From Candidatus Latescibacterota bacterium (GTDB taxonomy: Bacteria; Latescibacterota; UBA2968; UBA8231): DNA of 17,507 nucleotides. Made by a program: the position numbers and the translations under genes. Positions 1-17,310 of this stretch are shown here, in pieces (the stretch's first letter is position 1; each line of letters opens with the position of its first letter). Location: positions 1-17,507 of the forward strand of contig CBDETK010000003.1 of assembly GCA_965242865.1 (NCBI GenBank), written 5' to 3'. Under the pieces are notes generated by a model, which had not been told where the DNA came from, made no database searches, and saw only the letters and a program-made list of their open reading frames with translations.

Positions 1-3000
1 CAGACCCGCGCGCGGCGTCACGGCCACCCCGCCGTCCATCGGCAGGCGCTTCCCGACCTCCACGCCCAGGGCGTAGCCACGGCCGTTCACGTCGTTCTTC
101 AGCGTGGCGCCGGTCATCGATTCCAGATCCGCCTGGTACCACGTCACCGCGGCCTGCGCGTCCACGTGGAAGCCTCCGTCGAGCGCCCTCGTGGCATGCA
201 CGCCCACCCCGGCGCCCGACAGATCGATCTCGCCACCCCCTGTCATCTCCGCCGAACCCCGCAAGCCGTGGACCGACACGCCGACACCCCCGGCGTCGCC
301 CATCGCGAAGTCCATCCCCGCGCGCACCCCGTGGCGGCGATGGTCATAGGCGACGTTCTCCAGTGGCGTCGAAGTGTCCGCCGTCTGTTGCTGATGCGTC
401 GAGCTGTCTGCCTTCCACTTGCCGCGCGCGGCTTCCACCCGCGCCCAACCACCCTTGGCGTCCCGCGCCGCCGACGTCCGCTCCTCGTAGGTCGGGAGGC
501 CGTTCATCGCCAGCAGCGCCGATGGCAGCGCCGCGTACAGGCCGCACCGTTCCGGCACAGTGACGCAATTCATCATCATCGGTTCCGGTGCCGGTGCCGG
601 TGCCGGTGGCGGTGCCGGTTTCGGATCGAACCTGGGGTCTTCGTCGGAGCCCAGGTCCGGCACGCCGTCCGGGCGAAGGGGCACGGGCCGCGTTTCCATG
701 CCGGTGTTCTCGCCATCCGAGTCGACCGGGGAGAAGGTCACCCCTCCGGAGGCATCAATGCCAGAGCCGTCGATGCTGCCCCGCACCCTCGCCACCGCAT
801 TCTCGGCACCTTGCTGATACGGTCTTCCGGTAGTGGGATTCACGTCGTCGGCCGCGACCAGATAGATCACCTTGGTCGCCGGGCCGTCGCCCTGGATGGC
901 ATCGTCGGCGCCGTTGGCGTCCACGAGGGCCTCCAGGCCGACGGTCACGCTGCCGCCGCCGGTGAGATGCACCGCCGCCTCTGCGCCCGTGCTGCCCCGC
1001 ACCTGGCCGTCGATGACGATGACCGCTTCGCCCGGATCGTTGACCAGAACCGCCGGCTGCCCGGCACCGGCGTTCAGCATGCCGGTCTCGCCGACCAGCA
1101 GCACCCCACCGCCATGGAGATGGACGGCCGCGGCCCCCGTGCCGCCCATCACCGTGCCGTGCACCGTGACGAAGTGCTGGCGCAGGTCCGTCATGTCTTC
1201 CCGCAGATACAGGGACTCGCCCCGCTCGGTGTCCTTCCCCACATCGCCCAGACCCGCGTTCGCCACGTAGATGCCCGCCTCGGGGCCGGCGCTCGTGACG
1301 GTCGTGCCCGCGGCCACGGTGATGTCGATGAGGCCGTTGCTGTCGCTGGACTCCGCGTAGAGGGCGCGGATGCCGGTGCTCCGCGATGTATTGATGTCGA
1401 TGCTGAGGCATGGGTTCGGCTCCGAGCTGCAATCGTAGTCCGGAGCCGAGGGCAAGGGCGTATCCGTGGGCGGGACCCGGCACATGCCCATGCCGTCATC
1501 ACCGCGGGTCTGACCCTCGGGGCACGACGGCAGCGGAGCCTCTTGAAGGCCGGAGACGTTCAGCAAGCCCTCCGCGTTGAGCGGAACCCGCATCTCCATG
1601 CCGGTCGAGCCTTCCGAGTCGAGCACGGCCAGCCTCACCCCTTCGGAGGCGTCGATGCCAGAGCCGCCGATGCCGCCCTGCACCCTCGCCGCCGCCGCTT
1701 CGGCGCCTTCCCGATACACGACTCCGGCATCGGACACGTGCCGGCGCCCGGTCTCGGTCGTGCCGCCGGCCGCGACCAGCAGCCTCACCGTGGTCGCCGC
1801 GTCGTCGCCCCGGATGGCCCTGCGGGCGCCGTTGGCATCCACCCTACCGCTCGTGCCGACGGTCACGCTGCCGCCGCCGGTCAGATGCACCGCCGCATCC
1901 GCGTTCATGCTGCCCTGCACCTGGCCGTCGATGACGATGACCGCTTCGCCCGGGTCGTTGACCAGAACAGCCGGCTGCCCGGCGGAGGCATTCAGCCTGC
2001 CGGTCCGGCCGACCAGCAGCACCCCACCGCCCACGAGACGAACGGCCGCGTCCTCCGTGCCGCCCGTCACCGTGCCGTGCACCGTGACGAAGTGCTGGCG
2101 CAGGCCCGTCACGTCTTCCCGCAGATACAGGGACCTGCCCCGCTCGGAGTCCATCTCCACATCGCCCAGACCCGCGTTCGCCACGTAGATGCCCGCCTCG
2201 GCGCCGGCGCTCGTGACGGTCGTGCCCGCGGCCACGGTGACGTCGATGCGGCCGTTGCTGTCGTCGGGCGAAAAATAGAAGGCGCGGATGCCGGAGCTCC
2301 GCGATTCTTCGATGTCGATGCGGAGGCATGGGTTCGGCTCCGAGCTGCAATCGAAGTGCGGGGGCGGCGGAGCCCGCATATAGCCGGAGACGTTCAGCAA
2401 GCCCTCCTCGTTGAGCGTAACCGGCATCTCCATGCCGGTCGGGCCTTCCGAGTCGACCACGGCGAGGTGCACCCCTCCGCCGTCGGAGCCCGTGATGCCG
2501 TCACCGGCGATGCCGCCTTTCAACCTCTCATTCACATTCTCGACGCCCTGCCGATACGGGGTTCCGTCGTCGTCCACATACCGGTGTCCAGTAGTTTCAC
2601 TCGTGCCGCTGGCCGCAACCTCCACGACCACCTTGGTCATCTCGCCGTCGCCCAGGATGGCGTCGGTGGCGCCGTTGGCGTCCACGCTGCCGACCGGACC
2701 GAGGGTCACCACGCTGCCGCCACCGGTGAGATGCACCGCCGCCGGCGCGCCCGCGCCGCCCCTCACCTCGCCTTCGATGCGGACCTCCGCCCGGCCGGAG
2801 CCGTTGATCCAGATCGCGCGGCCCGAAGAGCCGGCGCCGGCGTATACCTTGCCCATCTCGCCGACCGTCAGCGTACCGCCGCCGACCAGATGGACGGCCG
2901 CGTCCGTGCCGCCCGTCACCGTGCCGTTCATGACCCTCACGGTCTGCTTCAGGATGCGGTCGACACCGGTTCCCATGGCGCCCGCGTTGGCGACGTAGAT

Positions 3001-5679
3001 GCCGGCCATGGCGCCGGTGACGGTGGCCTCGGTGCCGGTGTTGGTCGTCGTGCCATCGGCCGCAATGACGGGAGCGACGCCCACGGTGACGCTGATGGCG
3101 CCGTTGTTGGCGTTCGGCGTCGCGTAGTAGGCGCGGATGCCGTCACCCCGCGAATTGATGGAGCCCCCGGTCATGTTGACCCGGATGTTCCCGACGTTGT
3201 AGCGGTCGAGGAACGCCTTCACCAAGCTCCAGTAGTCCGCGTCGTTCGCCATGTCGTCCATGACGCCCGCGTCGGTGAGCGCGGCGTCCACGGCGGCTTC
3301 GTCACCCGTCGCCACCGCCGCCAGCACCGCCTTCTCCTTGTCCGAGAGGCCCCGCGTCATGAGATCCACCAGGGCGGCCCGGTTGGCGAGGCCGTCATCC
3401 CCCAGGTAGGCCTCGATCTCGGTCTCGGTGTACACGTCGTTGTTATCGGTGTCGATGGCGTCGAGGGCCGTGGCGAGCGCGCTCCCGTCCTCGACCATGA
3501 CGTCACCGTTGTCGATCGCTGCCTTGGCCTGCTTCACGAGGGCGTCCGTCTGAGTCTCGAGCTCCGAGCCGGCCGCTGCGGCGGGATTGAACTCCAGGAG
3601 CTGGGCCGCGCGATCCGCAATCGCGGTCTCGTCGGCCTTCGCCACCTGCTCCACCACGTCGCGCCAGGTCATGACCTGGGCCTCGATGCCCGCCGGCGCG
3701 CCGTAGCGGATGCTCCCCTCGACCTGCCCGGCCTGCACCTCCCGGTCGAGGTCGAACGCGGAGGCGACGGTCGCCGCCACGAAGCGGTCGTCGTCGTTCG
3801 GGGCGACGGTGGCCGTCGTCCCGTGGGAGAACGTGCCCATCCAGGTGACGTCGATCACTTCCGGTTCCGCGGGGGTCGTCCGAGCCACGGCCGTTGCGGC
3901 GGTGGAGTAGGGCGCCACGAAGGCGTAGACGCCCTTCCGGCCCTGGATCGTCCCGCCCTGGGTGACCTTGATCTGGCTGCCGTTGTTTGTCGTGGTGTCG
4001 GCGTCCTGCGTCCCCTCCCAGAGGCGGGCGAAGATCCCGGCGTTGTACTTCGAGATGAGCATCGTGTCGTCGCCCGAGACCTCGACGATGACGTTGCCCG
4101 TCCCCCGGTTCATGGCGAGGACGGCGGCCCCCTTGCCCCTGCTCGCGGCGGCGGCGGAGGGGGAGGTGGCAAGGGCGGCGGCGACGGGGTCGGCCTTGGC
4201 GCTCGCCCGGACCGTACCGCCCGTCACCTTGACGGTCACGGGGTCCGTGCTCGCCGTCGCGCCGGCCCCCCTGTTCTCGACGAAGATGCCGTTCCACCCC
4301 GAGGCGACGATCGTGCCGCCGGTATTGGTGATGGAGGTCGCGCCGTTGCCCCTCCTCGACACGTAGAGGCCGTGGCTCCCCGCGGTGACGTCGGCGCCGT
4401 TGGAGATCGTGACCGCGCCCGTATACATGGAGTTGTCCCGCACTTCGATACCGTGCCTCGGGGCGGTGATCGAGCCGCCCTCGGTCGTGACGGTCATGGC
4501 GCCGCTGTTCGTTGCCTCGTTGCCGGCGGAGTTCGGGGCCCTCTGGATGAACATGCCATCGGTGTTATCGGCTGTCGCCACGAGGTCACCGCCGGTCATC
4601 TTGACCGTGATATCGCCCGTGCCCTCGATCTGGTAGAGCTCGACGGCGTTGCGGGCGGCGGCTGTGATGTCGCCGCCGATGTTGATCGTGGTATCGCCGG
4701 AGCCGGCGGCTGTGTTGGCGCCGCCGGTTTGCCCGTGGCGCACGAAGACGCCTTGATGATTCGAGGTGATGGCGCCCCCGGTGTGCCCGACCGTGAGGTC
4801 ACCGTGGCCTTCGTAATCCACCGAGATGCCCCGGCCCGAGGCGGCCGTCGTCGTGATGTCGCCATTGCTGGTGACTGTGAGGTCGCCAGTATCCGTGGTG
4901 TCCGTGGAGCGGGCATACCACGCGTAGATGCCGTGGCCGCCGGTCACATGGATATTGCCGGTGTTCTCGACCCTCGAGTCTGCCGTGGTGCCGCTGTTCG
5001 CGCCGTTCCGAGAGAACCAGATGCCCAGCCGGTTGGCGTAGATCTTCGCCGCGGACGTTATGGTCGCTGCGCCAGCGGTCTCCTGCAGGATGCGGACGCC
5101 CGCGGTATTGTTGTTGGTAGCTATCGGGCTTCCACTCGCGCCGATTGTCACGTCGCCTTCGATGGTTATCGTCGACGTCCCGTCGCCGCTGCCACGCCAG
5201 ATGTAGACGCCACTCGAGACTCCTCCTCCCGTGACGGTCACTTCGGACACGCCGCCCACTTCGAGCGCGGCGTTGCCGCCGCTGGCGTTCATGAAGACGG
5301 CGCCCGAACCCGTGGCCGTGAGCACGATCTTTGCCTGGGATCCCGTCTGGCTGCCCACGTAGACCGTGCCTGCCATATTGGCGGTCGAATGGGTGTAGGA
5401 GATGGGCGAATAGGTACCGGTTGAGACACCGTCTGAGGTGGTGACGGTCGCGCCGGTGCCAATACCATCGCAGTTGGCCGTAAGCGGGCTGCCGGACAGG
5501 GTACCGCACGTGTTCGCCCTCGCCTCGCCCGGCAGGAGGAGGAGCGCGGCGAGGAAGGCGACGGCCGCGGCCGCCATCCCCCTCGGCGACGCCCCGGACT
5601 CGCGAGCCGCGGGGCCCTCCCCCGAGCGCCCGCGCCAGATGCGGCTGCTGGAGCCGTTCCCAACTGCAAGTACGTTCAT
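1..5679 (-). CDS. Large autotransporter (type Va) surface protein / adhesin-like; 3' end beyond the window
   Basis: ATG at 5679 preceded by GAGGA. The N-terminus MNVLAVGNGSS...MAAAAVAFLAALLLLPGEARA looks like an extended signal peptide. It is followed by a G/T/V/D-rich beta-helix-like passenger, a Pro-rich linker (PKPAPPPAPAPAPEP, ~580-630) and beta-barrel-type strands (GFHVDAQAAVTWYQADL...GRGYALGVEVGKRL...VTPRAGL) at the left edge. The ORF track lists no minus-strand ORF ending in this frame, consistent with the frame being open to position 1 (1893 codons). Confidence 0.9.
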   Translation of the reverse strand, partial: MNVLAVGNGSSSRIWRGRSGEGPAARESGASPRGMAAAAVAFLAALLLLPGEARANTCGTLSGSPLTANCDGIGTGATVTTSDGVSTGTYSPISYTHSTANMAGTVYVGSQTGSQAKIVLTATGSGAVFMNASGGNAALEVGGVSEVTVTGGGVSSGVYIWRGSGDGTSTITIEGDVTIGASGSPIATNNNTAGVRILQETAGAATITSAAKIYANRLGIWFSRNGANSGTTADSRVENTGNIHVTGGHGIYAWYARSTDTTDTGDLTVTSNGDITTTAASGRGISVDYEGHGDLTVGHTGGAITSNHQGVFVRHGQTGGANTAAGSGDTTINIGGDITAAARNAVELYQIEGTGDITVKMTGGDLVATADNTDGMFIQRAPNSAGNEATNSGAMTVTTEGGSITAPRHGIEVRDNSMYTGAVTISNGADVTAGSHGLYVSRRGNGATSITNTGGTIVASGWNGIFVENRGAGATASTDPVTVKVTGGTVRASAKADPVAAALATSPSAAAASRGKGAAVLAMNRGTGNVIVEVSGDDTMLISKYNAGIFARLWEGTQDADTTTNNGSQIKVTQGGTIQGRKGVYAFVAPYSTAATAVARTTPAEPEVIDVTWMGTFSHGTTATVAPNDDDRFVAATVASAFDLDREVQAGQVEGSIRYGAPAGIEAQVMTWRDVVEQVAKADETAIADRAAQLLEFNPAAAAGSELETQTDALVKQAKAAIDNGDVMVEDGSALATALDAIDTDNNDVYTETEIEAYLGDDGLANRAALVDLMTRGLSDKEKAVLAAVATGDEAAVDAALTDAGVMDDMANDADYWSLVKAFLDRYNVGNIRVNMTGGSINSRGDGIRAYYATPNANNGAISVTVGVAPVIAADGTTTNTGTEATVTGAMAGIYVANAGAMGTGVDRILKQTVRVMNGTVTGGTDAAVHLVGGGTLTVGEMGKVYAGAGSSGRAIWINGSGRAEVRIEGEVRGGAGAPAAVHLTGGGSVVTLGPVGSVDANGATDAILGDGEMTKVVVEVAASGTSETTGHRYVDDDGTPYRQGVENVNERLKGGIAGDGITGSDGGGVHLAVVDSEGPTGMEMPVTLNEEGLLNVSGYMRAPPPPHFDCSSEPNPCLRIDIEESRSSGIRAFYFSPDDSNGRIDVTVAAGTTVTSAGAEAGIYVANAGLGDVEMDSERGRSLYLREDVTGLRQHFVTVHGTVTGGTEDAAVRLVGGGVLLVGRTGRLNASAGQPAVLVNDPGEAVIVIDGQVQGSMNADAAVHLTGGGSVTVGTSGRVDANGARRAIRGDDAATTVRLLVAAGGTTETGRRHVSDAGVVYREGAEAAAARVQGGIGGSGIDASEGVRLAVLDSEGSTGMEMRVPLNAEGLLNVSGLQEAPLPSCPEGQTRGDDGMGMCRVPPTDTPLPSAPDYDCSSEPNPCLSIDINTSRSTGIRALYAESSDSNGLIDITVAAGTTVTSAGPEAGIYVANAGLGDVGKDTERGESLYLREDMTDLRQHFVTVHGTVMGGTGAAAVHLHGGGVLLVGETGMLNAGAGQPAVLVNDPGEAVIVIDGQVRGSTGAEAAVHLTGGGSVTVGLEALVDANGADDAIQGDGPATKVIYLVAADDVNPTTGRPYQQGAENAVARVRGSIDGSGIDASGGVTFSPVDSDGENTGMETRPVPLRPDGVPDLGSDEDPRFDPKPAPPPAPAPAPEPMMMNCVTVPERCGLYAALPSALLAMNGLPTYEERTSAARDAKGGWARVEAARGKWKADSSTHQQQTADTSTPLENVAYDHRRHGVRAGMDFAMGDAGGVGVSVHGLRGSAEMTGGGEIDLSGAGVGVHATRALDGGFHVDAQAAVTWYQADLESMTGATLKNDVNGRGYALGVEVGKRLPMDGGVAVTPRAGL
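700..3140 (-). repeat. Three large (~850-920 bp, ~280-306 aa) tandem repeats in the autotransporter passenger
   Basis: A GTCACGCTGCCGCCGCCGGTnAGATGCACCGCCG-type anchor recurs at ~944, ~1862 and ~2710. GCCGGAGACGTTCAGCAAGCCCTCC occurs at ~1549 and ~2383. Segments ~940-1430 and ~1860-2350 are highly similar. Confidence 0.85.
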
Positions 5680-5771
5680 TGCCTGTTTCCTCTTGTTGAG
5701 ATCGCCCCCTGAGCCGCTTGGGCGGGGTTGGGGCATTCAGCCAGCCGTCGCGGCCAGCCCACGCGGGCGGA

Positions 5772-5799
5772 AGTATACCCCCCGAAGTTCGACGTGCAA
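5772..5799 (-). promoter_or_regulatory. Putative sigma70 promoter of the autotransporter
   Basis: Minus strand TTGCAC-N16-TATACT, ~90 bp upstream of the ATG. A 12-bp direct repeat (CCCCTGATCCCG x2, 5801-5824) sits just upstream of the -35 box. Confidence 0.5.
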
Positions 5800-5927
5800 C
5801 CCCCTGATCCCGCCCCTGATCCCGCGCACGTCAACGCGGGCGGAGAGGCCCCCGCCCCGCTCCGGGAGGCAGGTGCGCGGGGGGGACCTTCGCCGGTCGC
5901 CGGGTGCGCCTCCCGCGAACGCTCCCG

Positions 5928-6643
5928 GGGGCGGCGCGCCCTCGATCCGAAGCTCCCCGGGTCACGGTTCGGCGGCGAGTCGCCGCGACGATGGGGGCGG
6001 CGCACCCCCCAATCCGAAGTCCGAAGCTCCCCGGGTCGCGCGGCCCGGCCGGGCCGACGGCCCCGATGGGGCGGCGCGCCCCCAATCCGATGCTCCCCGG
6101 GTCTTCCCGTGCCGGCGGGACGCCGGCGTACCCGGGGCGGGGCGGCCCCAATCCGGCTCCCCGGGTCTTCCCGTGCCGGCGGGACGCCGGCGTACCCGGG
6201 GCGGGGCGGCCCCCAATCCGGGCTCCCCGGGTCTTCCCGTGCCGGCGGGACGCCGGCGTACCCGGGGCGGGGCGGCCCCAATCCGGAGCTCCCCGGAGTC
6301 TTCCCGTGCCGGCGGGACGCCGGCGTACCCGGCGGGGCGTCCCCCAATCCGGGCTCACCGGGTCTTCCCGTGCCGGCGGGACGCCGGCGTACCCGGGGCG
6401 GGGGTACCCGGGGCGGGGCGGCCCCCAATCCGGGCTCCCCGGGTCTTCCCGTACCGGCGGGACGCCGGCGTACCCGGGGCGGGGCGGCCCCAATCCGAAG
6501 CTCCCCGGAGTCTTCCCGTACCGGCGGGACGCCGGCGTACCCGGGGCGGGGCGGCCCCCAATCCGGGCTCCCCGGGTCTTCCCGTGCCGGCGGGACGCCG
6601 GCGTACCCGGGGCGGGGCAGCCCCAATCCGGGCTCCCCGGGTC
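5928..6643. repeat. CRISPR-like repeat/spacer array without cas genes: 11 ~36-bp repeats and 10 spacers (2 unique, plus 8 copies of a third)
   Basis: Repeat consensus GGGGCGGCGCGCCCCCAATCCGAAGCTCCCCGGGTC at 5928-5963, 5994-6037 (with an internal 7-bp duplication) and 6068-6103, then 8 more variant copies. Spacers 5964-5993, 6038-6067 and 6104-6133 are each 30 bp and unrelated apart from a shared CGAT near the 3' end of the first two. Spacer 3 recurs with a 64-67 bp period (one 81-bp unit has a 15-bp internal duplication). Confidence 0.85.
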
Positions 6644-6973
6644 GGGCAAGGCTCGACTGGTTATCCGGATTCGGATTTTTCAGCTCTCGGAGGTTCCCGG
6701 TACCGGGAACGATTCGATGAGGCGTGCGGCGCGGCGCCGGGTCGGCGCCGGCTCGGTGGGCACGGACAGGGCCGGGGCCGAGGGGCCGGCCGGAACCCGG
6801 CAGGTGTTGCGGCAGCGGGCCGCGAGCTCGCCGAGCAGGGTGTCGAGGCCGTGAAGGGGCGCTCCGTCGTCGCTGCGCCGGGATGCTTTCCCGTGCCGGG
6901 CGCGAGCGGTGGGTTGGGCCGCGGCGACGGGGTCGCGGGTGCGCCGGGCGTCGGCCAGGGTCCCGTCGTCGAA

Positions 6974-7320
6974 CCGCAGCGGCGCCCAGGCGCGGCGCAG
7001 GCGCCATCGGTGCGCCACCGTCCCCACCCCGACGCCCGCGGTGGCGCCCAGGCGCGGCGCAGGCGCCATTCGGTGCGCCACCGTCCCCACCCCGACGCCC
7101 GCAGCGGCGCCCAGGCGCGGCGCAGATGCCATCGGTGCGCCACCGTCCCCACCTCGACGCCCACGGTGGCGCCCAGGCGCGGCGCAGATGCCATCGGTGC
7201 GCCACCGTCCCCACCTCGACGCCCACGGTGGCGCCCAGGCGCGGCGCAGATGCCATCGGTGCGCCACCGTCCCCACCTCGACGCCCACGGTGGCGCCCAG
7301 GCGCGGCGCAGGCGCCATTC
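6974..7320. repeat. 62-63-bp tandem array: 6 copies of a transposase segment separated by 5 copies of a non-transposase insert
   Basis: GGCGCCCAGGCGCGGCGCAG starts at 6981, 7043, 7106, 7168, 7230 and 7292 and encodes part of W(R/H)LRRAWAP. The intervening sequence is GGTGCGCCACCGTCCCCACCYCGACGC. Confidence 0.9.
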
Positions 7321-7337
7321 CAGGCAGCCGGCCAGCA

Positions 7338-7450
7338 GGCACACGAGCCGATGCGCCCCGACCCGGCGCTCCTCATGTTGAAGGTCGCGATGGTGTGCTG
7401 CTCGCCCTGGGAGGGCACACGAGCCGATGCGCCCCGACCCGGCGCTCCTC
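7338..7450. repeat. Perfect 37-bp direct repeat flanking a 39-bp foreign insert
   Basis: GGCACACGAGCCGATGCGCCCCGACCCGGCGCTCCTC at 7338-7374 and 7414-7450. The insert 7375-7413 reads SQGEQHTIATFN(M) on the minus strand. Confidence 0.92.
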
Positions 7451-7567
7451 GCGGTGGCGGATGGGACGCACCCGGACGTCGAGCCCCTTCAGCGTGCGGA
7501 ACCAGCGTTCGGCGTCGGCCAGCCCCTTGCAGGTGCGCACCGTGTCTTCGGGGGAGAGCCGCCCGGC

Positions 7568-7791
7568 GGGCTCGCTGGTGCGAAGCACGTACGGGCTCGC
7601 CGGTGCGCAGCACGTACGGGCTCGCCGGTGCGAAGCACGTACGGGCTCGCCGGTGCGCAGCACGTACGGGCTCGCCGGTGCGCAGCACGTATGGGCTCGC
7701 CGGTGCGCAGCACGTATGGGCTCGCCGGTGCGAAGCACGTACGGGCTCGCCGGTGCGAAGCACGTATGGGCTCGCTGGTGCGCAGCACGTA
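7568..7791. repeat. 25-bp tandem repeat x9 (transposase YVLRT(S/G)EP segment plus 1 nt)
   Basis: GGGCTCGCYGGTGCGMAGCACGTAY starts at 7568, 7593 and so on to 7768. Confidence 0.93.
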
Positions 7792-7798
7792 GATGCCG

Positions 7799-8037
7799 TC
7801 GAGGCGCGCCTCGGCGTCGGTCCGCGCGTGGTCCCGTTCATGGACATCGAGGCGCGCCTCGGCGTCGATCCGCGCGTGGTCCCGTTCATGGACATCGAGG
7901 CGCGCCTCGGCGTCGATCCGCGCGTGGTCCCGTTCATGGACATCGAGGCGCGCCTCGGCGTCGGTCCGCGGGTGGTCCCGTTCATGGACATCGAGGCGCG
8001 CCCCGGCGTCGGTCCGCGCGTGGTCCCGTTCATGGAC
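7799..8037. repeat. 48-bp tandem repeat x5 (transposase [16 protein letters not shown])
   Basis: GAGGCGCGCCTCGGCGTCG...CATGGAC starts at 7801, 7849, 7897, 7945 and 7993. Confidence 0.93.
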
Positions 8038-8130
8038 CAGGCGCCCGTCGTGGACCGTCCACCGGAAGTGCTTGGCCATCCCCCGATGGGACTCGGGGGC
8101 AGGCTCGTGCCGTGCGATGACCCGGCCCGC

Positions 8131-8313
8131 CTCGTGCCCGGGCCGTGCCGCGTGCCCGGGCCGTGCCGCGTGCCCGGGCCGTGCCGCGTGCCCGGGCCGT
8201 GCCTCGTGCCCGGGCCGTGCCTCGTGCCCGGGCCGTGCCTCGTGCCCGGGCCGTGCCGCGTGCCCGGGCCGTGCCGCGTGCCCGGGCCGTGCCGCGTGCC
8301 CGGGCCGTGCCGC
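8131..8313. repeat. 18-bp tandem repeat x10 ((A/E)ARPGH)
   Basis: CGTGCCCGGGCCGTGCCK repeated between the transposase segments RTPLD and EAGRVIARH. Confidence 0.93.
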
Positions 8314-8694
8314 GTCGAGCGGCGTGCGGGTGCGCCGGGCGGCCTCGCGCGCGATGCGTCCGGGTCGTCCTCGTCGTCCTCGTCGTCGCCCAAGTCGAGC
8401 TCCTGGACCAGCGTGGTGGTATGCCACCGCCGGGCGGTGCGAGCTTCGAGCCGGGGTGGAGCAGCCGTCCCACGACCATGGCCAGGACCCGATCACGCTC
8501 GGGCGAGCGCTTCGGGGCGATGAGCCGGTCCAGCCCCAAACGCCGGGTCATGGCCAGCACCGCTTCGACATGGCCATGGGGGAGGGAGCGTTCGATGGTG
8601 AAGGCTTCCTCGGGGCCGGCCCGTCCGGGCTTCTCCCGCTCCACGTTGCGCTCCGGTTGCGCCCGTCCCATTACGGCGCACTGGGAAATGCGGG

Positions 8695-10398
8695 CTATTG
8701 ATTCGCACATTCAAGATTCGCACCTCCAAGCTTCGCACCTAAAAGCTTCGCACCTTCAAGATTCGCACCTTCAAACTTCGCACCTTCAAACTTCGCACCT
8801 TCAAGCTTCGTACACTCAAGATTCGCACCTTCGAGATTCGCACCTTCGAGATTCGCACCTTCGAGATTCGCATCTTCGAGATTCGCACCTTCGAGATTCG
8901 CACCTTCGAGATTCGCATCCCTCAAGTCTGCGCGAAGAAGCTTCGCATTTTGCAGCTTTGCCCGAGTCAGATTCGCTCCTTGCAACCGGGCTGATAAAAT
9001 ATTCGCGCCTCGTAGATCTGCCCGAGTCAGATTCGCTCCTTGCAACCTGGTTGATATGATATTCGCGCGTTGTAGATTTGCCCGATTCAGATCCGCCTCT
9101 TGCAACCGAGTGTTCGATAATTTTGCATCCTGAAGAGAAGCCAGATTAAGATTCGCATTCTGCATACTTGCGCTTGCGAGGTCGGCGTTCTGCAACCGCG
9201 CACCTCTCAGATCTGCATCCTGCAGTTTCGCTTTCGAGAAATTTGCACTCTGCAATCGCATGCCTCGCATCTCCGCACCCCGTAAATCTGTTTCTTCGAA
9301 GTTCCCTCCATGTATCCAAGTGGATGTCAATTTGGCGAAAAGAAATTTTCGCGAGCTCAGGTCGACTATATCCTTGTAAAATCGGTTGATTCCATTCTCG
9401 TCTTTGGATTCCTCGGATGATCGAGCTTTCAGCTCCCGGTCTGACATTCTGACCAGCTCCCTGTTTCTGACATCGAGATAACGGCAGGCGATGCCCCATG
9501 ATTCGCAGGGTACCGCATCGAGAAAATTTCTTCTCATGAGCACTACGTCGATGATCTTCTGTAACTGCGATATTTCATCGGCCTCAGGGAATTCGCGCCA
9601 GATCTGCTTTCGATCTTCTTCTACGGTTTCGTGATCGAATACCGGAGGACGGGCTGCGAATAGTGCAATTGACACCATGAAGATGGGGACAACAAGTAAC
9701 AGTAACGTTTTCCACAACGTCGTCCACGAAATGGGTCTGGGATTTCCGCGTGGCCGAGGGCCTCCATCCTCCATGAGTCTCTTTTCTGCCCACCTTTTAC
9801 TATTGAGTACGATCCACGCAACAAATATCAAATCCGTTAAGAACAAGGTATCATGGATCAGGGTAATCGTACCAGATTGATAACGAACAAAAGAAAGATC
9901 GACAGCGAACAGCAACCCCAATGGTATTGCCACAATGACCAGGAATGCCAACAGTCTTGACAGCCAGTTTGAACTTTCCTGGCAGTTTGAACTTTCCTGG
10001 CAGTTTGAACTTTCCTGAATCGCTTGAACGAAAATGGAGGCGGAAAGCCGATCTCGCAATTCCTGTCTGGTTATACCGGAACCGGGAGTTCGAGGACATT
10101 CCTCTTTCAACACTAAATCGAATCTTGATGTTTTAAATCTGAGCTCTCGCAATACGAACAAGAAATAGATATGCAGAAAGAACAGGATCAATGGCCCAAT
10201 GATATAGCTATCCCTCAGTGAAAGTCCGATGTCCAACTGCCCCACTATCAAGTTGAGGAAAAGATTTTCATCGGTAGAGGAGATCACTATCCATAACAGG
10301 TAGAGCGCCACCACCAGGAACAGGAGCATCGTGGCCTGCGCCTTCCGGGCCGTGTCGTTGACTGCTTCAATCAGTCGGTGCAATCGCTCGTCATTCAT
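8695..10398 (-). CDS. Membrane-anchored pentapeptide-repeat protein 1 (567 aa)
   Basis: ATG at 10398 follows AAGGGGAG and aligns with the paralogue start ([19 protein letters not shown] vs MNRKDLDRLSRLRESANDSARS). About five hydrophobic segments precede long A(D/N)Lxx pentapeptide repeats, ending in a 15-bp ANLEG tandem run (~8700-8920). Confidence 0.9.
9964..10017 (-). repeat. In-frame 18-bp tandem repeat x3 (QESSNC/W)
   Basis: CAGTTTGAACTTTCCTG at 9965, 9983 and 10001. Confidence 0.9.
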
Positions 10399-10770
10399 CC
10401 GGAACTCCCCTTTCGGGCTATTCAAGGACGGGTTGCCGCCGCAAAGCCGGAACCCCGGCATGTCGCCGCTATTCGTGTTTGCAACGCTTGCCCCCGCGGC
10501 GGCAGGCATTGCCGCGCTCGTTCCCTCCATGTCGCCCGGTCAGGATCCGGAGGCAGGCATTGCTTCCGTGCCCTGGTGAGAGAAGCAGGCTAAAGCCCGA
10601 AGCCGACCTGTCCCGCCAGCAAGGCGGGAACCACTTCCTTCATCCATCCGCAGCACTACGTCTCTACCCGCCCATCTGATCCGGGGCCTCTGCCCACCTC
10701 TTGATTGCGATTCGACCGCCACTGCCGGTTGATGGGAGGACAGCCTCGAAGGAGTCACCTGCTCGCAACA

Positions 10771-11341: not shown

Positions 11342-13332
11342 TTATTCGCCAGTGATTTTCTTCAGATCAGCACGCAACTGTTCCGGCAACATGTTTGCCA
11401 CGGCAGGACACTTCGCTTTCAGCAGATTCTCCGCGAGCTGGGGACCAAGCAAGCGATCTGCAAAAGCCCGACGAGCAATTCCCTTGGCGACGTAGCCACT
11501 TGATCCGTCTTCACAGGCCAACTCATCGACAAGGTAAGTTGCAAGTTTCTCTCGATATCTTTCGCCGATTGATTCTTCTTCGGAATGTGGGAAACCGTGT
11601 GCATCATCATCATCAATAGAATATCTATGTTTTATGGAGAGTTGATCAATTGTCTCATGATTCTTTGCATTTGCAATTCTATCCTGTATTTTCTCGAAGA
11701 CCTCCATATCATCAACAGTTTTCCTTATCTGCGTGTGTAATTCAGAAAGATCTGGCTCACAAGAATCGATGGTGCGCAGATCTGCATAATCGAAATTGGT
11801 TCCGATCAATTCTGTACCACAAAATTTAGCTCCTCTCAAATCCGCACCACCAAGATCGGCATTTGTCAAATCCGCTCCATAAAGCTTGGCCTTTCTTAGA
11901 TCTGCACCTCTGAGGTCAGCATCCCTTAAATCCGCCCCATGAAGTTCGGCCCCGACCAAGTCTGCCCCATGAAGTTCGGCCCCGACCAAGTCTGCGCCAT
12001 GAAGTTCGGCCCTGTTCAAGTTTGCGCCATGGAGTTTGGCCCTGCCCAAATTTGCGTCATGAAGTTCGGCTTCGTCCAGATTTGCGCCATGAAGTTCGGC
12101 CCTGTTCAAGTTTGCGCCATGGAGTTCGGCCCTGTTCAAGTTTGCGCCATGGAGTTTGGCCCCGCCCAAGTTTGCCCCATGAAGTTCGGCCTCGTCCAGG
12201 ATTGTATCGTGAAGTTCAGCGTTGAGAAAATTTGCACCGTGAAGTTTAGCTCTGCTCATCTCTGAACCGTTAAGTATTGCGAGCTCAAAATCTACTGCAC
12301 ACAATATTGCGCCGGATAAATCTGCGTCCCTAAAAACACGATCTTTCAGATCAAGCGGTCGGGCATATTTGCACCAGACAGGTGTGCCAGGATCGATTGC
12401 TTCTTCGTCACATCGATTCTCGCCGCAGGTGTCAAGATAGGCTGATAAAATTTCAGGTGGAGGTCTCTCCTGTACCAATTCACGATCTTGAAATTCATAC
12501 TTCCGTCGAAAGCATGATATAAAATGTAAGCTAATCCCGATATTGATATTGCGATTATTATCACACTTTCAATTGTTCGTCGTAGGTTCTCAAACGACCG
12601 TCTCCTCTGATTCCGAACCCACTGTATCCGTGTCTTTTTTGGTGCAACGATTCCAGGCCATAGCCACCACAGGATACCGACATCTGCCACCACGAGTATA
12701 AATTGCAAAATCGTGATGCGTCCCGATTGATACTCTAGAAATCGTACTCCAGTGACAACTAAGATGACGAGTGGTATTATAATAATAGGGATTATAACCA
12801 AGAATAGATTCTGCCATGTACAGTCAGAGTCTCCTTCTGCAATCATATGGGCGAGCGGTGCGGGAAACAGAAGATTACGCATCTCCTTCTTCTCGCCGTC
12901 CTTCTTCTCGCCGTCCCTCTCCTCGCCGTCCCTCTCCTCGCCGTCCCTCTCCTCGCCGTCCCTCTCCTCGCCGTCCCTCTCCTCGTCGTTTGACGACGAC
13001 GGCAATCGGTGCGAATAAATCTCCGAAATCGCCAATGCATACCGATGCACTTTGTACGAGAGAAATTTTGCTTGAATAAGTAGATTGAAGTGCAGGGCCA
13101 GAAGAATCAACGGTGAGACGATGAAGAACGATCTAATTGGTACACTAAAATTGACAATAGCTATTTGTAAACTACCATTACGAAACAACTCCTCCTTCTC
13201 CCTGAACATCACGATAGAGAGGATGTAAAGCACGATGACGAGGTAAGAGACGTACACCGTGCGAAAGCTGCGTGCACTGTCATTCGCGGATTCGCGCAGA
13301 CGGCTCAATCGATCCAAATCTTTCCTATTCAA
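11342..13332 (-). pseudogene. Membrane-anchored pentapeptide-repeat protein 2, split by a frameshift near 12500-12530
   Basis: TTG start with AGGAGG RBS. The N-terminal TM half (ORF 12346-13332) is homologous to protein 1. The pentapeptide half (ORF 11342-12478) is in the -1 frame, which already reads FRRKYEFQDRELVQERPPPE upstream of its listed start, matching [12 protein letters not shown] in protein 1. Confidence 0.8.
12886..12990 (-). repeat. In-frame 15-bp tandem repeat (NDEER, DGEER x4, DGEKK x2)
   Basis: CTCGCCGTC at 12892, 12907, 12922, 12937, 12952 and 12967. Confidence 0.92.
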
Positions 13333-14235: not shown

Positions 14236-14637
14236 TCATGCCGGCAGTCCGGCGCCCGAGTCCTCATTGTGCCCCGCAGCCCCGGCGACCCGGGAGACGA
14301 AGCACGCCGCCTCGGCCTCCTTGCGCAAGGCGCGAAACGCCTCGATGCGCTTCCTCGACTGCGGGGCCGCGTCGCGGAACATGCCCCCCCTCTCCCCCGG
14401 GGTGCCGTAGAGAAAGCTCAGGGTCTCGGCCGCGGTGTAGTCCCGGTACGCCATCCGGGACGCGATCCTGTCGATCGTGCAGATGCACGGGTAGAGGGTG
14501 TCGTAGCTCTGGCCCCCGTGCTCGCCCATGCAGGCAAGCACGAACTCGACGCGGGCCTGGGTCGGGAAGTCGTTCGCCGTCGCACCGCCTCCGTAGGATA
14601 ATGCGGCGAGCGCCAGCGCAAGCAGCGGCTTTTTCAT
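14236..14637 (-). CDS. Conserved secreted/periplasmic Cys-containing protein (NDFPT.ARVEFVL.CM...C.C.ID.IA family)
   Basis: Signal peptide MKKPLLALALAALSYGGGATA and high-GC codon usage. Motifs NDFPTQARVEFVLACM, YPCICTIDRIAS and GERGGMFRD resemble a hypothetical family I recall near PQQ-dependent alcohol/methanol dehydrogenase clusters (unverified). Confidence 0.8.
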   Translation of the reverse strand: MKKPLLALALAALSYGGGATANDFPTQARVEFVLACMGEHGGQSYDTLYPCICTIDRIASRMAYRDYTAAETLSFLYGTPGERGGMFRDAAPQSRKRIEAFRALRKEAEAACFVSRVAGAAGHNEDSGAGLPA

Positions 14638-14690
14638 GACGTGGACACCGGGAGGAACGAGGGATGGATGGTAACGGACGCTCGCGCGAT

Positions 14691-15029
14691 TGTCAGGGCA
14701 GGGGCATGCCGGGATGCTTTCTTGTGCCGGGCGTGAGCGGTGGGCTTGGCCGGGGCGACGGGGTCGCGGGTGCGCCGGGCGGCCTCGCGCGCGATGCGTT
14801 CAAGGTCGTCCTCGTCGTCGCCCAAGTCGAACTCCTGGGCCAGCGTGGTGGTATGCCACCGCCGGGTGGTGGCGAGCTTCGAGCCGGGGTGGAGCAGCCG
14901 TCCCACGACCATGGCCAGGACCCGGTCGCGCTACGCCAAGCGCTTCGGGGCGATGAGCCGGTCCAGCCCCAAACGCCGGGTCATGGCCAGCACCGCTTCG
15001 ACATGGCCATGGGGGAGGGAGCGTTCGAT
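14691..15029 (-). mobile_element. IS1634-family remnant 2 (minimal deletion derivative)
   Basis: Closely similar to 8325-8598 and 6880-6950. Reads [10 protein letters not shown]...[47 protein letters not shown]|[12 protein letters not shown]|DPVAPAKPTAHARHKKASRH|APALT, with an in-frame TAG. Confidence 0.88.
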
Positions 15030-15081: not shown

Positions 15082-17310
15082 TCAACAGCATTTTGGACAC
15101 TCGCCGGGAGTGTCCGGTGCATGAGTGAGAAGAGAAACTACCTCGGGCTCATCTTGGATACTGGCGTAATGTAGAGGCAATTTTCCTTGTCCATCCTCCA
15201 TCGAAACTGCACCAGCGCTCAACAAAATTCTAATAATCATGACATCACCAGTGTAAGCGGCCGCATGCAGTGCGGTGAGTCCATTTTCGTTCTGAAGATT
15301 GACGTCTGCATCAATCTCCAGTAGGGAGCAAACGACCTTGGAATTAGCCTTTCTAACGGCCTCATGCAGGGCAGTATCGCCCCGGTTGTCGCGCTGATTC
15401 ACATCAGCACCCCATTTATGCAGGAGAACAACGAAAGCAGGGCGATCTCGTTGAGCTGCACGATGCAAGGGAGTCTTTCCAAAGATGTTACGCGCATCCA
15501 ATCGGCTACCAGCCTCCAACAAAATCTCACCGATCTCAAGATGACTTTGAGAGGCAGCTTGATGCAGAGGAGAATGGTCAAACTTATCTTGTGAATTCGG
15601 ATCTGCCCCGAATTTGAGCAGTATACGTACAATCTCGACATAGCCTCGAGTAGCGGCCAAGTGTAGGGGGGTGCGGGTCCTGGTCTGTAAATTGAAATTC
15701 GCGCCAGCCTTGAGCAAGAGATCCACAGTGTCTTTGTGGTCATTCTCAACTGCCAAGTGTAAAGGGGAATAGCCAAAATTGTTCTGCAAATCCGGATTTC
15801 CGCCATTGTCAAGAAGACGTTTGACAACCTCGTTGTTGCCCCTAATCGAGGCCCAATGCAAAGGGGTTAATCCATTGCTATCGGGAGCATTGGGATTGAG
15901 GCGACGGTGAAGGCGAGGAACGTGAACAACCTCATTAGTGGTATATGAAGGGTGCGGGTCAGGATAACGGAGGGAAGTGGTTTCTGAAGAGGACAACTGA
16001 GGAACACGAGTTTTTATGGCAACGGCAGATTCCAAGGTATCGACAAGTCCGTACTTTTTGGAGAAGTCGGATGGGGGTTCAGCATCACGAACCTTCGTAG
16101 GATGAAGGAGATCGGCATAGCGTTGGAAAGATACAGGGTCAGATCCAAAAGCGAGTAGTTTGTCAACAGTCGTGAGGTCGCCGTTGAAGGCGGCTTGGTG
16201 GAGCGCGGTGAATCCATAATCACCCCACATATCCGAATCAATAACTTCCAAATCAGCGCCCATCGTGGCTAGGGCGATAACAGTCTCAGAGTGACCTTGA
16301 TCCTTGGCCCGCTGGATCGGAGTCAACCCCTCCTCGTCCTGCACACTCGGGTCGGCGCCAGCGATAATCAAAGCGATGGCAATCTCGGAGTATCCATGAG
16401 CCGCTGCCTGATGCAACGGGGTAGACCCGTTGTTGATCTGCACATTCGGGTCGGCACCACCTGCAAGCAGCTCATCGACAACCTCGGAATAGCCCTGAGT
16501 GGAAGCTTTGTGCAGAGGGGTACATCCACCTTCGGTCAGCGCATTCGGATCAGCACCATAAGAGAGCAGACTGGAAACAATCCGAGGACGATCCAGAGCA
16601 GTGGCGATATACAGAGGATTGCATGCAGTGTCCTTCGCATTGGGATCGGCACCAGCCTTTAACAAAATATCAACGGCCTCGATATGGTCTTCGAGAATAG
16701 CGATGACCAGGGGAGTATACCCGTCGACACTCTGGATATTCGGATCAGCGTTAGCCTTCAACAAGGCATTTATAGTCTCTGGAAAACCCAGAACAGCCAT
16801 ATGCAGAGGGGCGAAACCGTCGATGTCCCGCGCATTCGGATCAGCACCGCCACGCAGCAGCGCGTCGACAACATCAGGAGCATCTTGAAGAGTGGCGATA
16901 TACAGTGGGGTAATCAGGTTGTCATCCGGAATATCTACTAAGCCAGCATCAGCCTCCAGCAAAACACCAACTGCCTCGGAACCACCTTGAAATGCGGCCA
17001 AGTGCAGGGGACTGAATCCGTCAGTGCTCTGGACAGCTAAATCAGCACCAGCCTCCAACAGCGCTGTGATATTAGCGGGGTCGCCTTCGAAGGCAGCCAA
17101 GAGCAGAGGGGTCAAGGCATCGACAGTCGGCAAGTTGGGATCGGCACCTGCCTTCAGCAGAGCAGCAACCTCCTCGACATTCCCACGGATAACGGCGTCG
17201 TGGAGCGGACCGAAATGGCCGGCGGCTTGGGCCGCATAGGCCAACACCGTGAATATAAATGCGATGAGAACTCGGAATCTCATAGGAACACGTAGACCCG
17301 GATAATTCAT
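15082..17310 (-). CDS. Secreted ankyrin-repeat protein (~19 repeats); start at 17310 or 17283
   Basis: Signal peptide MRFRVLIAFIFTVLAYAAQA. Eleven TPLHxA...LLxxGADPN-type repeats, an ~80-aa non-repeat insert, then eight more repeats. C-terminus GECPKCC. Confidence 0.95.
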   Translation of the reverse strand: MNYPGLRVPMRFRVLIAFIFTVLAYAAQAAGHFGPLHDAVIRGNVEEVAALLKAGADPNLPTVDALTPLLLAAFEGDPANITALLEAGADLAVQSTDGFSPLHLAAFQGGSEAVGVLLEADAGLVDIPDDNLITPLYIATLQDAPDVVDALLRGGADPNARDIDGFAPLHMAVLGFPETINALLKANADPNIQSVDGYTPLVIAILEDHIEAVDILLKAGADPNAKDTACNPLYIATALDRPRIVSSLLSYGADPNALTEGGCTPLHKASTQGYSEVVDELLAGGADPNVQINNGSTPLHQAAAHGYSEIAIALIIAGADPSVQDEEGLTPIQRAKDQGHSETVIALATMGADLEVIDSDMWGDYGFTALHQAAFNGDLTTVDKLLAFGSDPVSFQRYADLLHPTKVRDAEPPSDFSKKYGLVDTLESAVAIKTRVPQLSSSETTSLRYPDPHPSYTTNEVVHVPRLHRRLNPNAPDSNGLTPLHWASIRGNNEVVKRLLDNGGNPDLQNNFGYSPLHLAVENDHKDTVDLLLKAGANFNLQTRTRTPLHLAATRGYVEIVRILLKFGADPNSQDKFDHSPLHQAASQSHLEIGEILLEAGSRLDARNIFGKTPLHRAAQRDRPAFVVLLHKWGADVNQRDNRGDTALHEAVRKANSKVVCSLLEIDADVNLQNENGLTALHAAAYTGDVMIIRILLSAGAVSMEDGQGKLPLHYASIQDEPEVVSLLTHAPDTPGECPKCC

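Follow-up and report, generated by a model that had tools for sequence, protein, structure and literature searches.

It is still an open question how new CRISPR arrays and their repeats originate. In Escherichia coli, off-target integration is established as a source of arrays (Nivala et al. 2018, as described in 10.1101/148544, PMC6698737 and PMC11788318). According to these accounts, Nivala, Shipman & Church (2018) over-expressed the type I-E proteins, and the natural cases, from two other species, are circumstantial (10.1101/148544). The evidence for off-target integration in nature is thin. In these neo-CRISPR arrays, as described there, a fixed length of an arbitrary target is duplicated around an insert of measured length, more inserts may be added at the same new repeat, and the inserts come from the cell's own DNA. 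Another process, SPDIR, likewise deposits ectopic pieces of a cell's DNA, from 3 to about 100 bp long, at unrelated sites; it joins them at microhomologies and leaves variable microindels, and a constant flanking duplication of ~37 bp with measured insert lengths does not belong to its description in the text consulted (10.1101/2023.11.22.568220). Here we describe a window of 17,507 nucleotides (the whole stretch analysed, positions 1 to 17,507 of contig CBDETK010000003.1) whose composite loci appear to share these features with the neo-CRISPR arrays of Nivala et al. (2018). They differ from them in that the events are natural, lie in a dead insertion sequence, apparently fall into two size classes and were amplified in the manner of minisatellites.

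The contig is small, derived from long reads and mosaic in G+C, and it is foreign to the genome in which it was binned (G000), where it represents a mis-binning. The 37-bp CRISPR repeats and the Cas1 genes of G000 were therefore set aside, and G045 was used as the nearest relative in comparisons. No cas gene was found on the contig, in agreement with the sequence-only reading, according to which the window encodes no suitable integrase. Positions 6644 to 8618 (minus strand) hold a remnant of an IS1634-family insertion sequence, identified by pieces of the NF033559 profile and by DNA identity to L022, the closest intact copy (85-92%). The remnant has lost its left end, the first ~60 codons and a ~300-codon DDE core, and the right end alone survives; owing to the core deletion, the two profile matches (positions 37-86 and 361-416 of the profile) stay under the cut-off of 100 bits, at 18 and 46 bits. 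Full-length relatives of the transposase measure 576-588 aa, and near-identical intact relatives carry PF01609. Intact copies, 11 of which served for the definition, have terminal inverted repeats of 15-17 bp and a target duplication of 6 bp, the latter present in 6 of 6 intact copies in one genome. The element is an IS remnant and not a working member of the family. Five repeat loci lie inside it and a further one, array A, abuts its right end; native DNA was separated from non-native by alignment to L022 and to the 576-588-aa proteins. A second, shorter copy of the same remnant (14708-15029, minus strand, 91-92% identity) shares the core deletion, has lost additional sequence between direct repeats of 16 bp (two copies, codons ARRTR) and contains no arrays.

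Array A (5927-6643) is made of 11 copies of a 36-37-bp repeat with a period of 66 bp, separated by the inserts S1 (5964-5992, 29 bp) and S2 (6038-6067, 30 bp), each in a single copy, and by eight copies of the 30-bp S3 (starting at 6104, 6168, 6234, 6301, 6365, 6446, 6513 and 6579). Of the 37 bp in the repeat at 5927-5963, 14 nt are chromosomal flank (in G045 the conservation extends to window position 5941), 6 nt occupy the position of the target site and 17 nt belong to the terminal inverted repeat of the IS. Block duplication within the array is evident from a higher-order repeat of 212 bp at 96% identity. The first S3 insert (6104-6133, plus strand) is an internal 30-bp piece from the right arm of a ~100-bp REPIN. 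With up to 3 mismatches S3 occurs at 69 places in G045 and at none in 60 other genomes (reversed control 0), nor does it occur in the other 12 contigs of G000; all six of the G045 copies inspected are REPIN right arms, arranged in inverted pairs. S3 is the only insert that belongs to such a dispersed palindromic unit. As in REP, REPIN and BIME clusters, a REP hairpin arm stands here in tandem with a constant linker; unlike them, the window has single arms only, 8 of 8 in one direction, the linker is flank plus IS end, and S1 and S2 are other sequences. The uniform direction of the REP arms led us to reject a BIME, and a MITE reading of the units was set aside because the second inverted repeat agrees, by eye, at no more than 10-12 of 16-17 positions. 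In its donor, S3 is followed by GGGGCG, the letters with which the next repeat also begins, so that a microhomology of 6 nt is possible there. Beside the last repeat, G+C falls locally to 56% from about 80% (6650-6724); this dip is leader-like in position only, and in nothing else does the target resemble a genuine repeat or leader junction. A 19-mer of the IS end gave two matches in public metagenome contigs, both unrelated, and a protein search with the reading frame of array A gave none.

Inside the transposase gene, locus d consists of an exact 37-bp native repeat (7338-7374, minus strand, codons EERRVGAHRLVC), a 39-bp insert (7375-7413; minus strand SQGEQHTIATFNM) and the second exact copy of the repeat (7414-7450, minus strand). 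The insert is a fragment of a gene for GTP cyclohydrolase FolE2: 36 of its 39 positions are identical to folE2 in 2 of 61 genomes (reversed control 0), and the gene containing the match is assigned to PF02649 with an E value of 5.5e-99. At its two junctions the insert has 1 nt and 0 nt, respectively, in common with the donor. Viral contigs of public collections contain no exact match to the 39-mer. Locus e (6974-7320, minus strand) alternates native codons WRLRRAWAP with a non-native filler of 27-35 bp at a period of 62-63 bp. Native sequence accounts for 27 bp of every unit and reaches as much as 35-36 bp in a single one; there are five extra units, and removal of 311 bp restores the reading frame of the native protein. 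Its size, whether taken as 35-36 + 27-28 bp or as 27 + 35 bp, matches no measured array.

The repeat-insert-repeat architecture that the sequence-only reading had pointed out is thus present at all three loci, at very nearly the coordinates it gave, with non-native inserts flanked by duplicated native DNA. An exact 37-bp repeat recurring 76 bp away, together with arrays of period 62 and 66, is far beyond chance. That the inserts are unrelated to their sites was borne out by alignment to the intact IS, in which none of them proved to be native sequence. The similar length claimed for the duplications holds for array A and locus d (37 bp each); in locus e it is ambiguous (27-36 bp). The duplicated sequences had been taken for unrelated stretches, two of them ordinary transposase DNA. 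Those of d and e are indeed transposase codons; the third is not anonymous, being the junction of chromosome and IS end. With locus e read at 35-36 bp, the duplications measure 37, 37 and 35-36 bp, where the relatives' arrays commonly have repeats of 36-37 bp, and the insert lengths cluster (28, 29, 30, 30 and 39 bp). The 39-bp insert lies within the 35-40-bp spacer class, the 29/30/30-bp inserts match the 37/30 array of G044 and no array of G045, and the 27-28-bp insert of locus e is outside every measured spacer class.

Two of the five inserts, the folE2 fragment and the REPIN arm, were traced to DNA elsewhere; both are copies, and the folE2 fragment has nearly blunt junctions. No donors were found for S1, S2 and the locus e filler, and within G000 the search returned chance matches only, of 17 nt or less. 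Copying of the inserts from nearby DNA or from the intact IS, on either strand, was rejected (0 of 25 tests at or below 0.02, the lowest value being 0.040). Another set of local-template tests gave one nominal result in 30, the 35-nt filler of locus e against window positions 1-5900, with a score of 30 that was reached in 0 of 40 shuffles and a 16-nt match behind it. The window's repeats were significantly similar to measured CRISPR repeats in 0 of 24 and, in another set, 0 of 28 comparisons, and no Rfam family, CRISPR repeats included, matched the region.

Three further arrays of the remnant, all on the minus strand, are plain minisatellites: 25 bp x 9 at 7567-7791 (native codons YVLRTSEP), 48 bp x 5 at 7799-8037 (native codons) and 18 bp x 10.4 at 8129-8315 (native codons AAQLGH). 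They are purely native and hold no insert, which shows that ordinary slippage is at work in the remnant too. Their TRF arrays run head to tail and vary in copy number between assemblies: the 25-bp array has 9 copies here, 7 in P0001 and 4 in P0002, and the corresponding counts for the 48-bp array are 5, 5 and 2. These arrays are a separate, ordinary slippage phenomenon in unconstrained G+C-rich DNA. The composite loci share with minisatellites and VNTRs the head-to-tail copies, the higher-order blocks and the copy numbers that vary between assemblies. In contrast to them, their units are half local and half DNA from elsewhere, a composition that, as the earlier statement had it, simple slippage does not account for.

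Genuine arrays were measured in the relatives for comparison. In G044, which carries the same IS family, an array with a 37-bp repeat and 30-bp spacers lies beside a Cas9-like gene and includes a spacer duplication; arrays of 36-37/35-40 bp exist in G041, G044 and G045, and further classes in these genomes are 37/31-36 and 28-29/31-40. In repeat and spacer length these canonical arrays match array A and locus d, and the multiplication of one insert has its like in the spacer duplication of G044. The loci of the window differ from them in lacking adjacent cas genes, in having repeats made of local coding or junction DNA and in that the traced inserts copy genomic DNA and no known invader. All of the related genomes searched for Cas1 (5 of 5) contain it. 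Of 53 genomes from the order, 7 have a Cas9 match above the family cut-off; the nearest relative G045, together with G042 and G046-G051, has none (0 of 8). A search for Cas12a in 13 relatives found none, and its control was likewise silent everywhere. From the Cas9 and Cas12a results it follows that no 36-37/30 module is known near the true host.

G044 also contains events matching those of the window. In one, an array of five repeats with period 66, the repeat is a 36-bp stretch of integrase/junction DNA; the PF13356 match extends across the first repeat copy, and an intact paralogue reads on natively. All three of its distinct 30-bp spacers have 100% identical copies elsewhere in G044, and AGCGC stands 3' of each of the three donors, at offset 0-1. 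A G+C dip (32%) adjoins this array. In a second event an exact 36-bp repeat encloses a 38-bp insert, copied at 100% identity from a gene that G041 and G043 have conserved as well. When 2.4 Mb of G044 and G045 were scanned and clusters counted after removal of tandem and simple repeats, all but one of the repeat-gap-repeat clusters fell into measured CRISPR size classes. In 538 kb of loci, only L028 and L040 appeared besides the cas-linked arrays.

We think it rather probable that the three composite loci go back to Cas1-Cas2 integrating off target, with tandem amplification afterwards. On this view an integrase of that kind, encoded at another place in the true host's genome, would have joined a fragment of the cell's own DNA, of measured length, to the dead IS by two strand transfers spaced about 36-37 bp, and gap repair would then have duplicated the target to give repeat-insert-repeat. 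Array A would represent three successive captures at one site, and ordinary tandem duplication would later have multiplied the units (S3 to eight copies, locus e by five). The two size classes, ~37 + 29-30 in array A and 37 + 39 in locus d, would fit two adaptation modules of the kinds measured in the relatives. No working crRNA is expected, since the new repeats are arbitrary local DNA, and self-derived inserts may therefore be tolerated. The data show how the loci are built, that the inserts are foreign to their sites, two donors, polymorphism in copy number and corresponding events in relatives; which enzyme acted, that it did so on this contig and in what sequence the steps took place, we infer. 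The proposal of a ruler-like integrase acting in trans, with later amplification, which the sequence-only reading had put forward, is supported in part. It came through every test that was run and gained two traced captures, the G044 counterparts with their exact self donors and the agreement of the size classes with CRISPR arrays measured in the relatives; against it stand the sizes of locus e, the fact that no cas gene is tied to the contig's host and the dissimilarity between the repeats and measured CRISPR repeats.

Errors of replication and repair driven by structure could produce part of this picture. A very G+C-rich dead IS would stall forks; slippage of the nascent strands would give the plain 18-, 25- and 48-bp arrays, and now and then there would be template switching, in which the strand moves to an ectopic template, or takes up an ectopic single strand as in SPDIR, and re-enters about 36 bp upstream, with unequal exchange amplifying the product. 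The region may be locally unstable: it has six repeat loci in 2.7 kb, where the G000 chromosome has 2.5 arrays per 100 kb and the relatives' loci 5 in 286 kb, the three composite sites lie within 1.5 kb beside the insert-free minisatellites, copy numbers differ between assemblies, and other copies of the IS (P0119, P0121, P0125 and P0102) have deletion breakpoints in the same stretch. The possible microhomology at the S3 junction also fits, as does work on Acinetobacter that documents the integration of short ectopic patches at microhomologies (10.1101/2023.11.22.568220). Such errors do not predict, however, 35-37-bp duplications of three unrelated sequences, a cluster of 28-30-bp inserts or three different inserts at the same repeat boundaries, and the nearly blunt junctions of locus d speak against them. 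They also leave unexplained the exact 30-nt self donors with their AGCGC flank and the agreement in size class with each genome's CRISPR arrays, and neither the repeats nor the inserts form hairpins beyond the strength seen in shuffled sequences (z below -2 in 0 of 8). We regard this explanation as unlikely. An enzyme of a mobile element, either the IS transposase of intact copies cutting at the right end with sloppy repair or a REP-associated tyrosine transposase placing REP hairpins, seems very unlikely. It would account for a repeat of array A centred on the flank/IS-end junction, where the transposase would cut, and for S3 being REP DNA, and intact copies are numerous in the relatives (P0013 cluster, 29 member sequences). 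But loci d and e are internal to the gene and distant from any end sequence, intact copies generate 6-bp and not 37-bp duplications, S3 is an internal REPIN fragment in a single orientation rather than a whole mobile unit, folE2 DNA is not mobile, and L040 in G044 is a repeat-insert-repeat of the same size class with neither IS end nor REP.

The period of 66, the 36-37-bp repeat and the 29-30-bp spacers of array A, with a G+C dip adjoining, look like class 2, and a worn-out genuine CRISPR array beside which the IS landed would have this appearance. Yet its repeat is chromosomal flank conserved in G045 joined to an IS terminal inverted repeat; the repeats in the window are transposase codons or a flank/IS junction and not dedicated sequences, and the comparisons with Rfam and with measured repeats were negative, which makes this reading extremely improbable. 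That the structures are an artefact of assembly is hardly credible, even though the contig is small, mis-binned and mosaic. Array copy numbers are those of the assembly only and, among the matches listed, no Logan piece spans any array. Nevertheless, Logan contigs derived from short reads (4 runs of 3 studies) match positions 5801-6066 and 7128-7219, pieces of arrays A and e, without differences. Furthermore, other assemblies contain three proteins, P0001, P0002 and P0118, in which these junctions and arrays recur with different copy numbers (the locus d insert is in P0001 and P0002, and locus e in P0118 shows two differences), and copies within arrays differ by point changes in orderly patterns.

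If off-target integration is indeed the origin, the birth of CRISPR-like arrays would have been caught in nature, and the new repeats, having no working guide RNA, would preserve an unfiltered record of what the integrase captures. The loci would show what adaptation takes up when there is no selection against self-derived inserts. Taken together with their counterparts in G044, they give access to the sequence before insertion (intact IS or integrase), the donor and a flank motif, and such natural cases make the off-target idea testable with real enzymes and targets. It seems to us an evenly balanced proposition that, in this sponge-associated order of Gammaproteobacteria, adaptation modules belonging to two or more CRISPR types insert self DNA outside arrays time and again, so that arbitrary sequences become new repeats, gain spacers and expand in tandem. 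A practical consequence is that repeat finders may label arrays like 5927-6643 as CRISPR although the repeat is an IS end.

Some smaller observations were made on the repeats. The sequences turned into repeats are of varied nature: an IS end, transposase codons and integrase codons. The integrase repeat of G044 resembles the type II repeat of the same genome by eye, a likeness that was equalled in 360 of 1000 shuffles and was dismissed as not significant. Its similarity to the type II repeat of G058 was reached in 0 of 1000 shuffles, in one of 42 tests. In G045, repeat-gap-repeat candidates are located at 492652 (36 + 37) and 4045340 (28 + 33).

A remnant of an IS1634-family insertion sequence occupies positions ~8618 to 6644 on the minus strand, recognized from fragments matching NF033559 (profile positions 37-86 and 361-416) and from intact relatives. 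The protein search gave 117 relatives, including full-length transposases (576-588 aa, 85-92% identity), and intact DNA copies for comparison were taken from gammaproteobacterial MAG chromosomes. The intact element is ~1935 bp long, ends in CCGAAGTTCCCCGGG inverted repeats and is flanked by 6-bp target duplications (6 of 6 copies in one genome). The window copy lacks the left end, the first ~60 codons and a ~300-codon catalytic core. A second, shorter copy at 14708-15029 has the core deletion in common with the first and carries no arrays; an extra deletion in it is bounded by a pair of 16-bp direct repeats that encode ARRTR, a motif present twice in the native protein. At sites where intact copies agree, native stretches of the larger remnant (6625-8614) have 28 AT-to-GC changes versus 9 GC-to-AT, a strong G+C-ward drift although this DNA is already G+C-rich.

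Six repeat loci, defined with Tandem Repeats Finder and a repeat finder, lie inside or abut the remnant, native and non-native bases being told apart by alignment to the closest intact copy and to intact proteins. Three are plain tandem arrays of native codons: 18 bp in ten copies (AAQLGH), 48 bp in five and 25 bp in nine. The other three are composite. In locus d an exact native 37-mer occurs twice (7338-7374 and 7414-7450) with 39 non-native bases between. Locus e (6974-7320) alternates 27 native bases (35-36 at most, in one unit) with 27-35 non-native ones and has five extra units. Array A (5927-6643) consists of eleven copies of a 36-37-mer with three different inserts of 29, 30 and 30 bp (S1, S2 and S3), the third present eight times. 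Its repeat is a junction to which chromosomal flank contributes 14 nt, the target-site position six and the IS end 17; the flank part is conserved in the nearest relative of the window, the gammaproteobacterial MAG G045, up to position 5941. The sequence-only reading had proposed that a local stretch of ~36-37 bp is duplicated around an unrelated insert at three loci. With these refinements the architecture was right, and the length holds for locus d and array A and is ambiguous for locus e (27-36 bp). The density of arrays is exceptional, with 9 in 17.5 kb versus 143 in the 5.6-Mb main chromosome, and versus 5 across 286 kb of loci from relatives. No Rfam family matched the region. Further along, two pentapeptide-repeat genes on the minus strand (8695-10530 and 11342-12478) contain DNA-level arrays of 15 and 30 bp with 83-88% identity, a separate 15-bp array at 12884-12989 has seven copies 96% identical, and an ankyrin-repeat gene lies at 15082-17310.

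The arrays are real and polymorphic, since pieces of array A and locus e are matched with no differences by contigs from three studies (four public runs, sponge metagenomes included), and the same structures recur in three proteins of other assemblies. The 48-bp and 25-bp arrays leading into the 39-bp insert are also found in P0001 and P0002, with five and two copies of the 48-bp unit (five in the window) and seven and four of the 25-bp unit (nine in the window), and P0118 covers locus e, with two differences. No piece among those listed runs the length of an array, and copy numbers in the window are as assembled.

As the proposed comparison with intact IS copies proved, none of the inserts is native IS DNA. 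Nor were they copied from either strand of the IS or of the remaining window: one set of 30 tests gave one nominal result, and a second set 0 of 25 at 0.02 or below. Two of the inserts could be traced. Among 61 genomes, two match the 39-mer of locus d at 36 of its 39 bases (none for the reversed control), in both cases inside a FolE2 GTP cyclohydrolase gene (PF02649, E 5.5e-99); its junctions have 1 nt in common with the donor sequence at one side and none at the other. S3 was found at 69 places in G045 and in none of 60 other genomes. The six matches inspected all proved to be right arms of a REPIN, an inverted pair of ~100 bp, and S3 is a fragment from within it. The REPIN donor goes on with six bases that also start the next array A repeat, therefore this junction could be microhomology-mediated. 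The claim that foreign DNA had been captured stands for these two, but no donor appeared for S1 (0 of 5 and 0 of 53 genomes), S2 (0 of 5) or the non-native filler of locus e (0 of 5 and 0 of 61).

The window is the entire contig C3 (17,507 bp) of a 13-contig assembly. There is no DNA match to it in the other 12 contigs, from which the REP element that is the source of S3 is also absent, and 40 relatives of the binned genome gave only chance matches of 48 nt or less. It is matched by five gammaproteobacterial MAGs; G045 gave 98 matches to positions 1-5900, with an intergenic flank 85% identical. In its 16S the binned genome shares 78-80% identity with those MAGs, versus 98% with its own genus. 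Together this indicates that the contig is mis-binned, its true host being a G045-like organism outside the genomes compared. Since the contig is foreign to the binned genome, the two Cas1 genes and the arrays with 37-bp repeats found there have no bearing on it. G+C content along C3 is a mosaic: 65-72% (1-5500), 72-81% (5500-8500) and 45-65% in most of the remainder, with 70% at 14501-15000. An open frame at 1-5424 on the plus strand (1807 aa) runs off the contig start and has no Pfam match; given the 98 matches in G045, it is a member of a large multi-copy gene family there.

The same architecture is found in a relative. A scan for exact repeats of 25 bp or more, 20-45 bp apart, in 538 kb of loci from relatives gave 19 clusters, of which 17 were arrays in loci taken around cas genes and two, both in the MAG G044, lay elsewhere. 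One, in locus L028, is a 36-mer in five copies with 30-bp spacers, three distinct and one of them doubled. The Arm-DNA-binding domain of a phage-type integrase (PF13356, E 4e-8) crosses its first copy, and an intact paralogue continues natively where the L028 copy breaks off, so its repeat is local integrase/junction DNA. Each of the three distinct spacers has a 100% identical 30-31-nt copy elsewhere on the same chromosome, directly followed in the three donors by AGCGCC, CAGCGCC and CAGCGCG. One of these donors sits just upstream of members of the family of the 1-5424 frame. The second G044 cluster, in L040, has two exact copies of a 36-mer with 38 bp between them, and these 38 bp are a 100% copy of a gene conserved at 92% in G041 and G043. 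G044 also carries a Cas9-like gene adjoining a Cas1, as well as a genuine array in which 37-bp repeats, nine in all, alternate with 30-bp spacers. Further genuine arrays in G041, G043, G044 and G045 measure 36-37/35-40, 37/31-36 and 28-29/31-40 (repeat/spacer, bp). One spacer occurs twice in succession both in the genuine type II array of G044 (L095 15509-16085) and in the integrase-derived one (L028 9909-10208), therefore repeat-spacer units duplicate there even without new acquisition.

Over 2.4 Mb from G044 and G045, a census of repeats around unrelated gaps yielded ten clusters: four tandem or simple repeats, one 25+50, and 36+30, 36+38, 38+36 (with a genuine-looking repeat), 36+37 and 28+33. 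Beside Cas1 fragments it also found an array of 103 pairs, 28-30/31-33. The lengths, whose distribution the sequence-only reading had suggested as a test, are therefore discrete and equal to the CRISPR geometries of these genomes. Two of the pairs, at G045 C1:492652-492761 (36+37) and 4045340-4045429 (28+33), lie outside known cas loci.

We consider it more probable than not that the composite loci are products of off-target CRISPR adaptation. An integrase would measure both the captured fragment and the spacing of its two strand transfers, and repair would then duplicate the target. In array A the same site would have been used three times (37/30 class), while locus d (37/39) and locus e (class uncertain) would each go back to a single capture, the units being multiplied later by ordinary tandem duplication. 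For this last step, already suspected in the sequence-only reading, a 212-bp higher-order repeat within array A provides direct evidence. Since a functional guide RNA is not expected from arbitrary repeats, the cell would tolerate inserts of its own DNA. The near-blunt folE2 junctions, the CRISPR-sized events and the G044 donors with a common flank favor the ruler-like integrase acting in trans that had been postulated, but the window repeats resemble no measured CRISPR repeat (0 of 24 and 0 of 28 comparisons) and the geometry of locus e fits no measured array. Profile matches revealed no Cas9 over the family's cut-off in G045 and its seven nearest relatives, and Cas12a had no match in 13 genomes, in a search whose control likewise matched nowhere.

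Slippage with template switching, or SPDIR-like uptake of ectopic single strands, would account for the clustering of the loci. The DNA of the remnant is indeed unstable in its own right, as indicated by three insert-free minisatellites in it and by the deletion breakpoints of other IS copies, which fall in the same stretch. We still regard such an origin as unlikely, since it explains neither the constant ~37 bp nor the narrow insert sizes, and the folE2 junctions and the flank of the G044 donors are equally foreign to it. Hairpins as a cause were rejected, being no stronger than in shuffled sequence. Among the internally deleted IS copies, P0119, P0121, P0125, P0102 and P0111 are independent, come from other genomes and break within or beside the locus d-e stretch (around LVCLLAGYLEWHLRRAWAP); in one of them 30 bp are deleted between two repeats of RVR codons.

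As described in 10.1101/148544, PMC6698737 and PMC11788318, Nivala et al. 2018 showed in E. coli that off-target integration can seed new arrays; the first of these calls the natural evidence, from two other species, circumstantial. The window loci work alike. Their repeats consist of IS and flank DNA, which sets them apart from genuine CRISPR arrays. Full membership in the off-target class cannot be claimed, as the duplication and insert lengths could be set only against arrays of relatives and the targets are unlike a genuine CRISPR repeat. The finding is real and unusual, better supported than could be seen from the sequence alone, of a kind known but thinly documented, and the set of natural analogues makes the mechanism testable.

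The discrete lengths evident in G044 and G045 did not extend to the unrelated binned genome, where no length peak was found among 91 two-copy loci (1-2 at each of the lengths 35-38; most loci were protein repeats or REP-like). Another small contig of that assembly has small CRISPR-like pairs at C4:12434-12540 and C4:27019-27173, their repeat being similar to the one in the first array of the chromosome. At C13:3499537-3499645 (L061 2038-2146), an exact 38-bp repeat surrounds a 33-bp gap; on one side lies an IS1595-family transposase gene, on the other a multi-copy AAA-ATPase gene with its 3' end. The gap sequence recurs 7 times elsewhere in the binned genome, with 89-100% identity. In the array of that genome itself, repeats measure 37 bp and spacers 34-37 bp, and the C13 pair may reflect a similar event in a different phylum.
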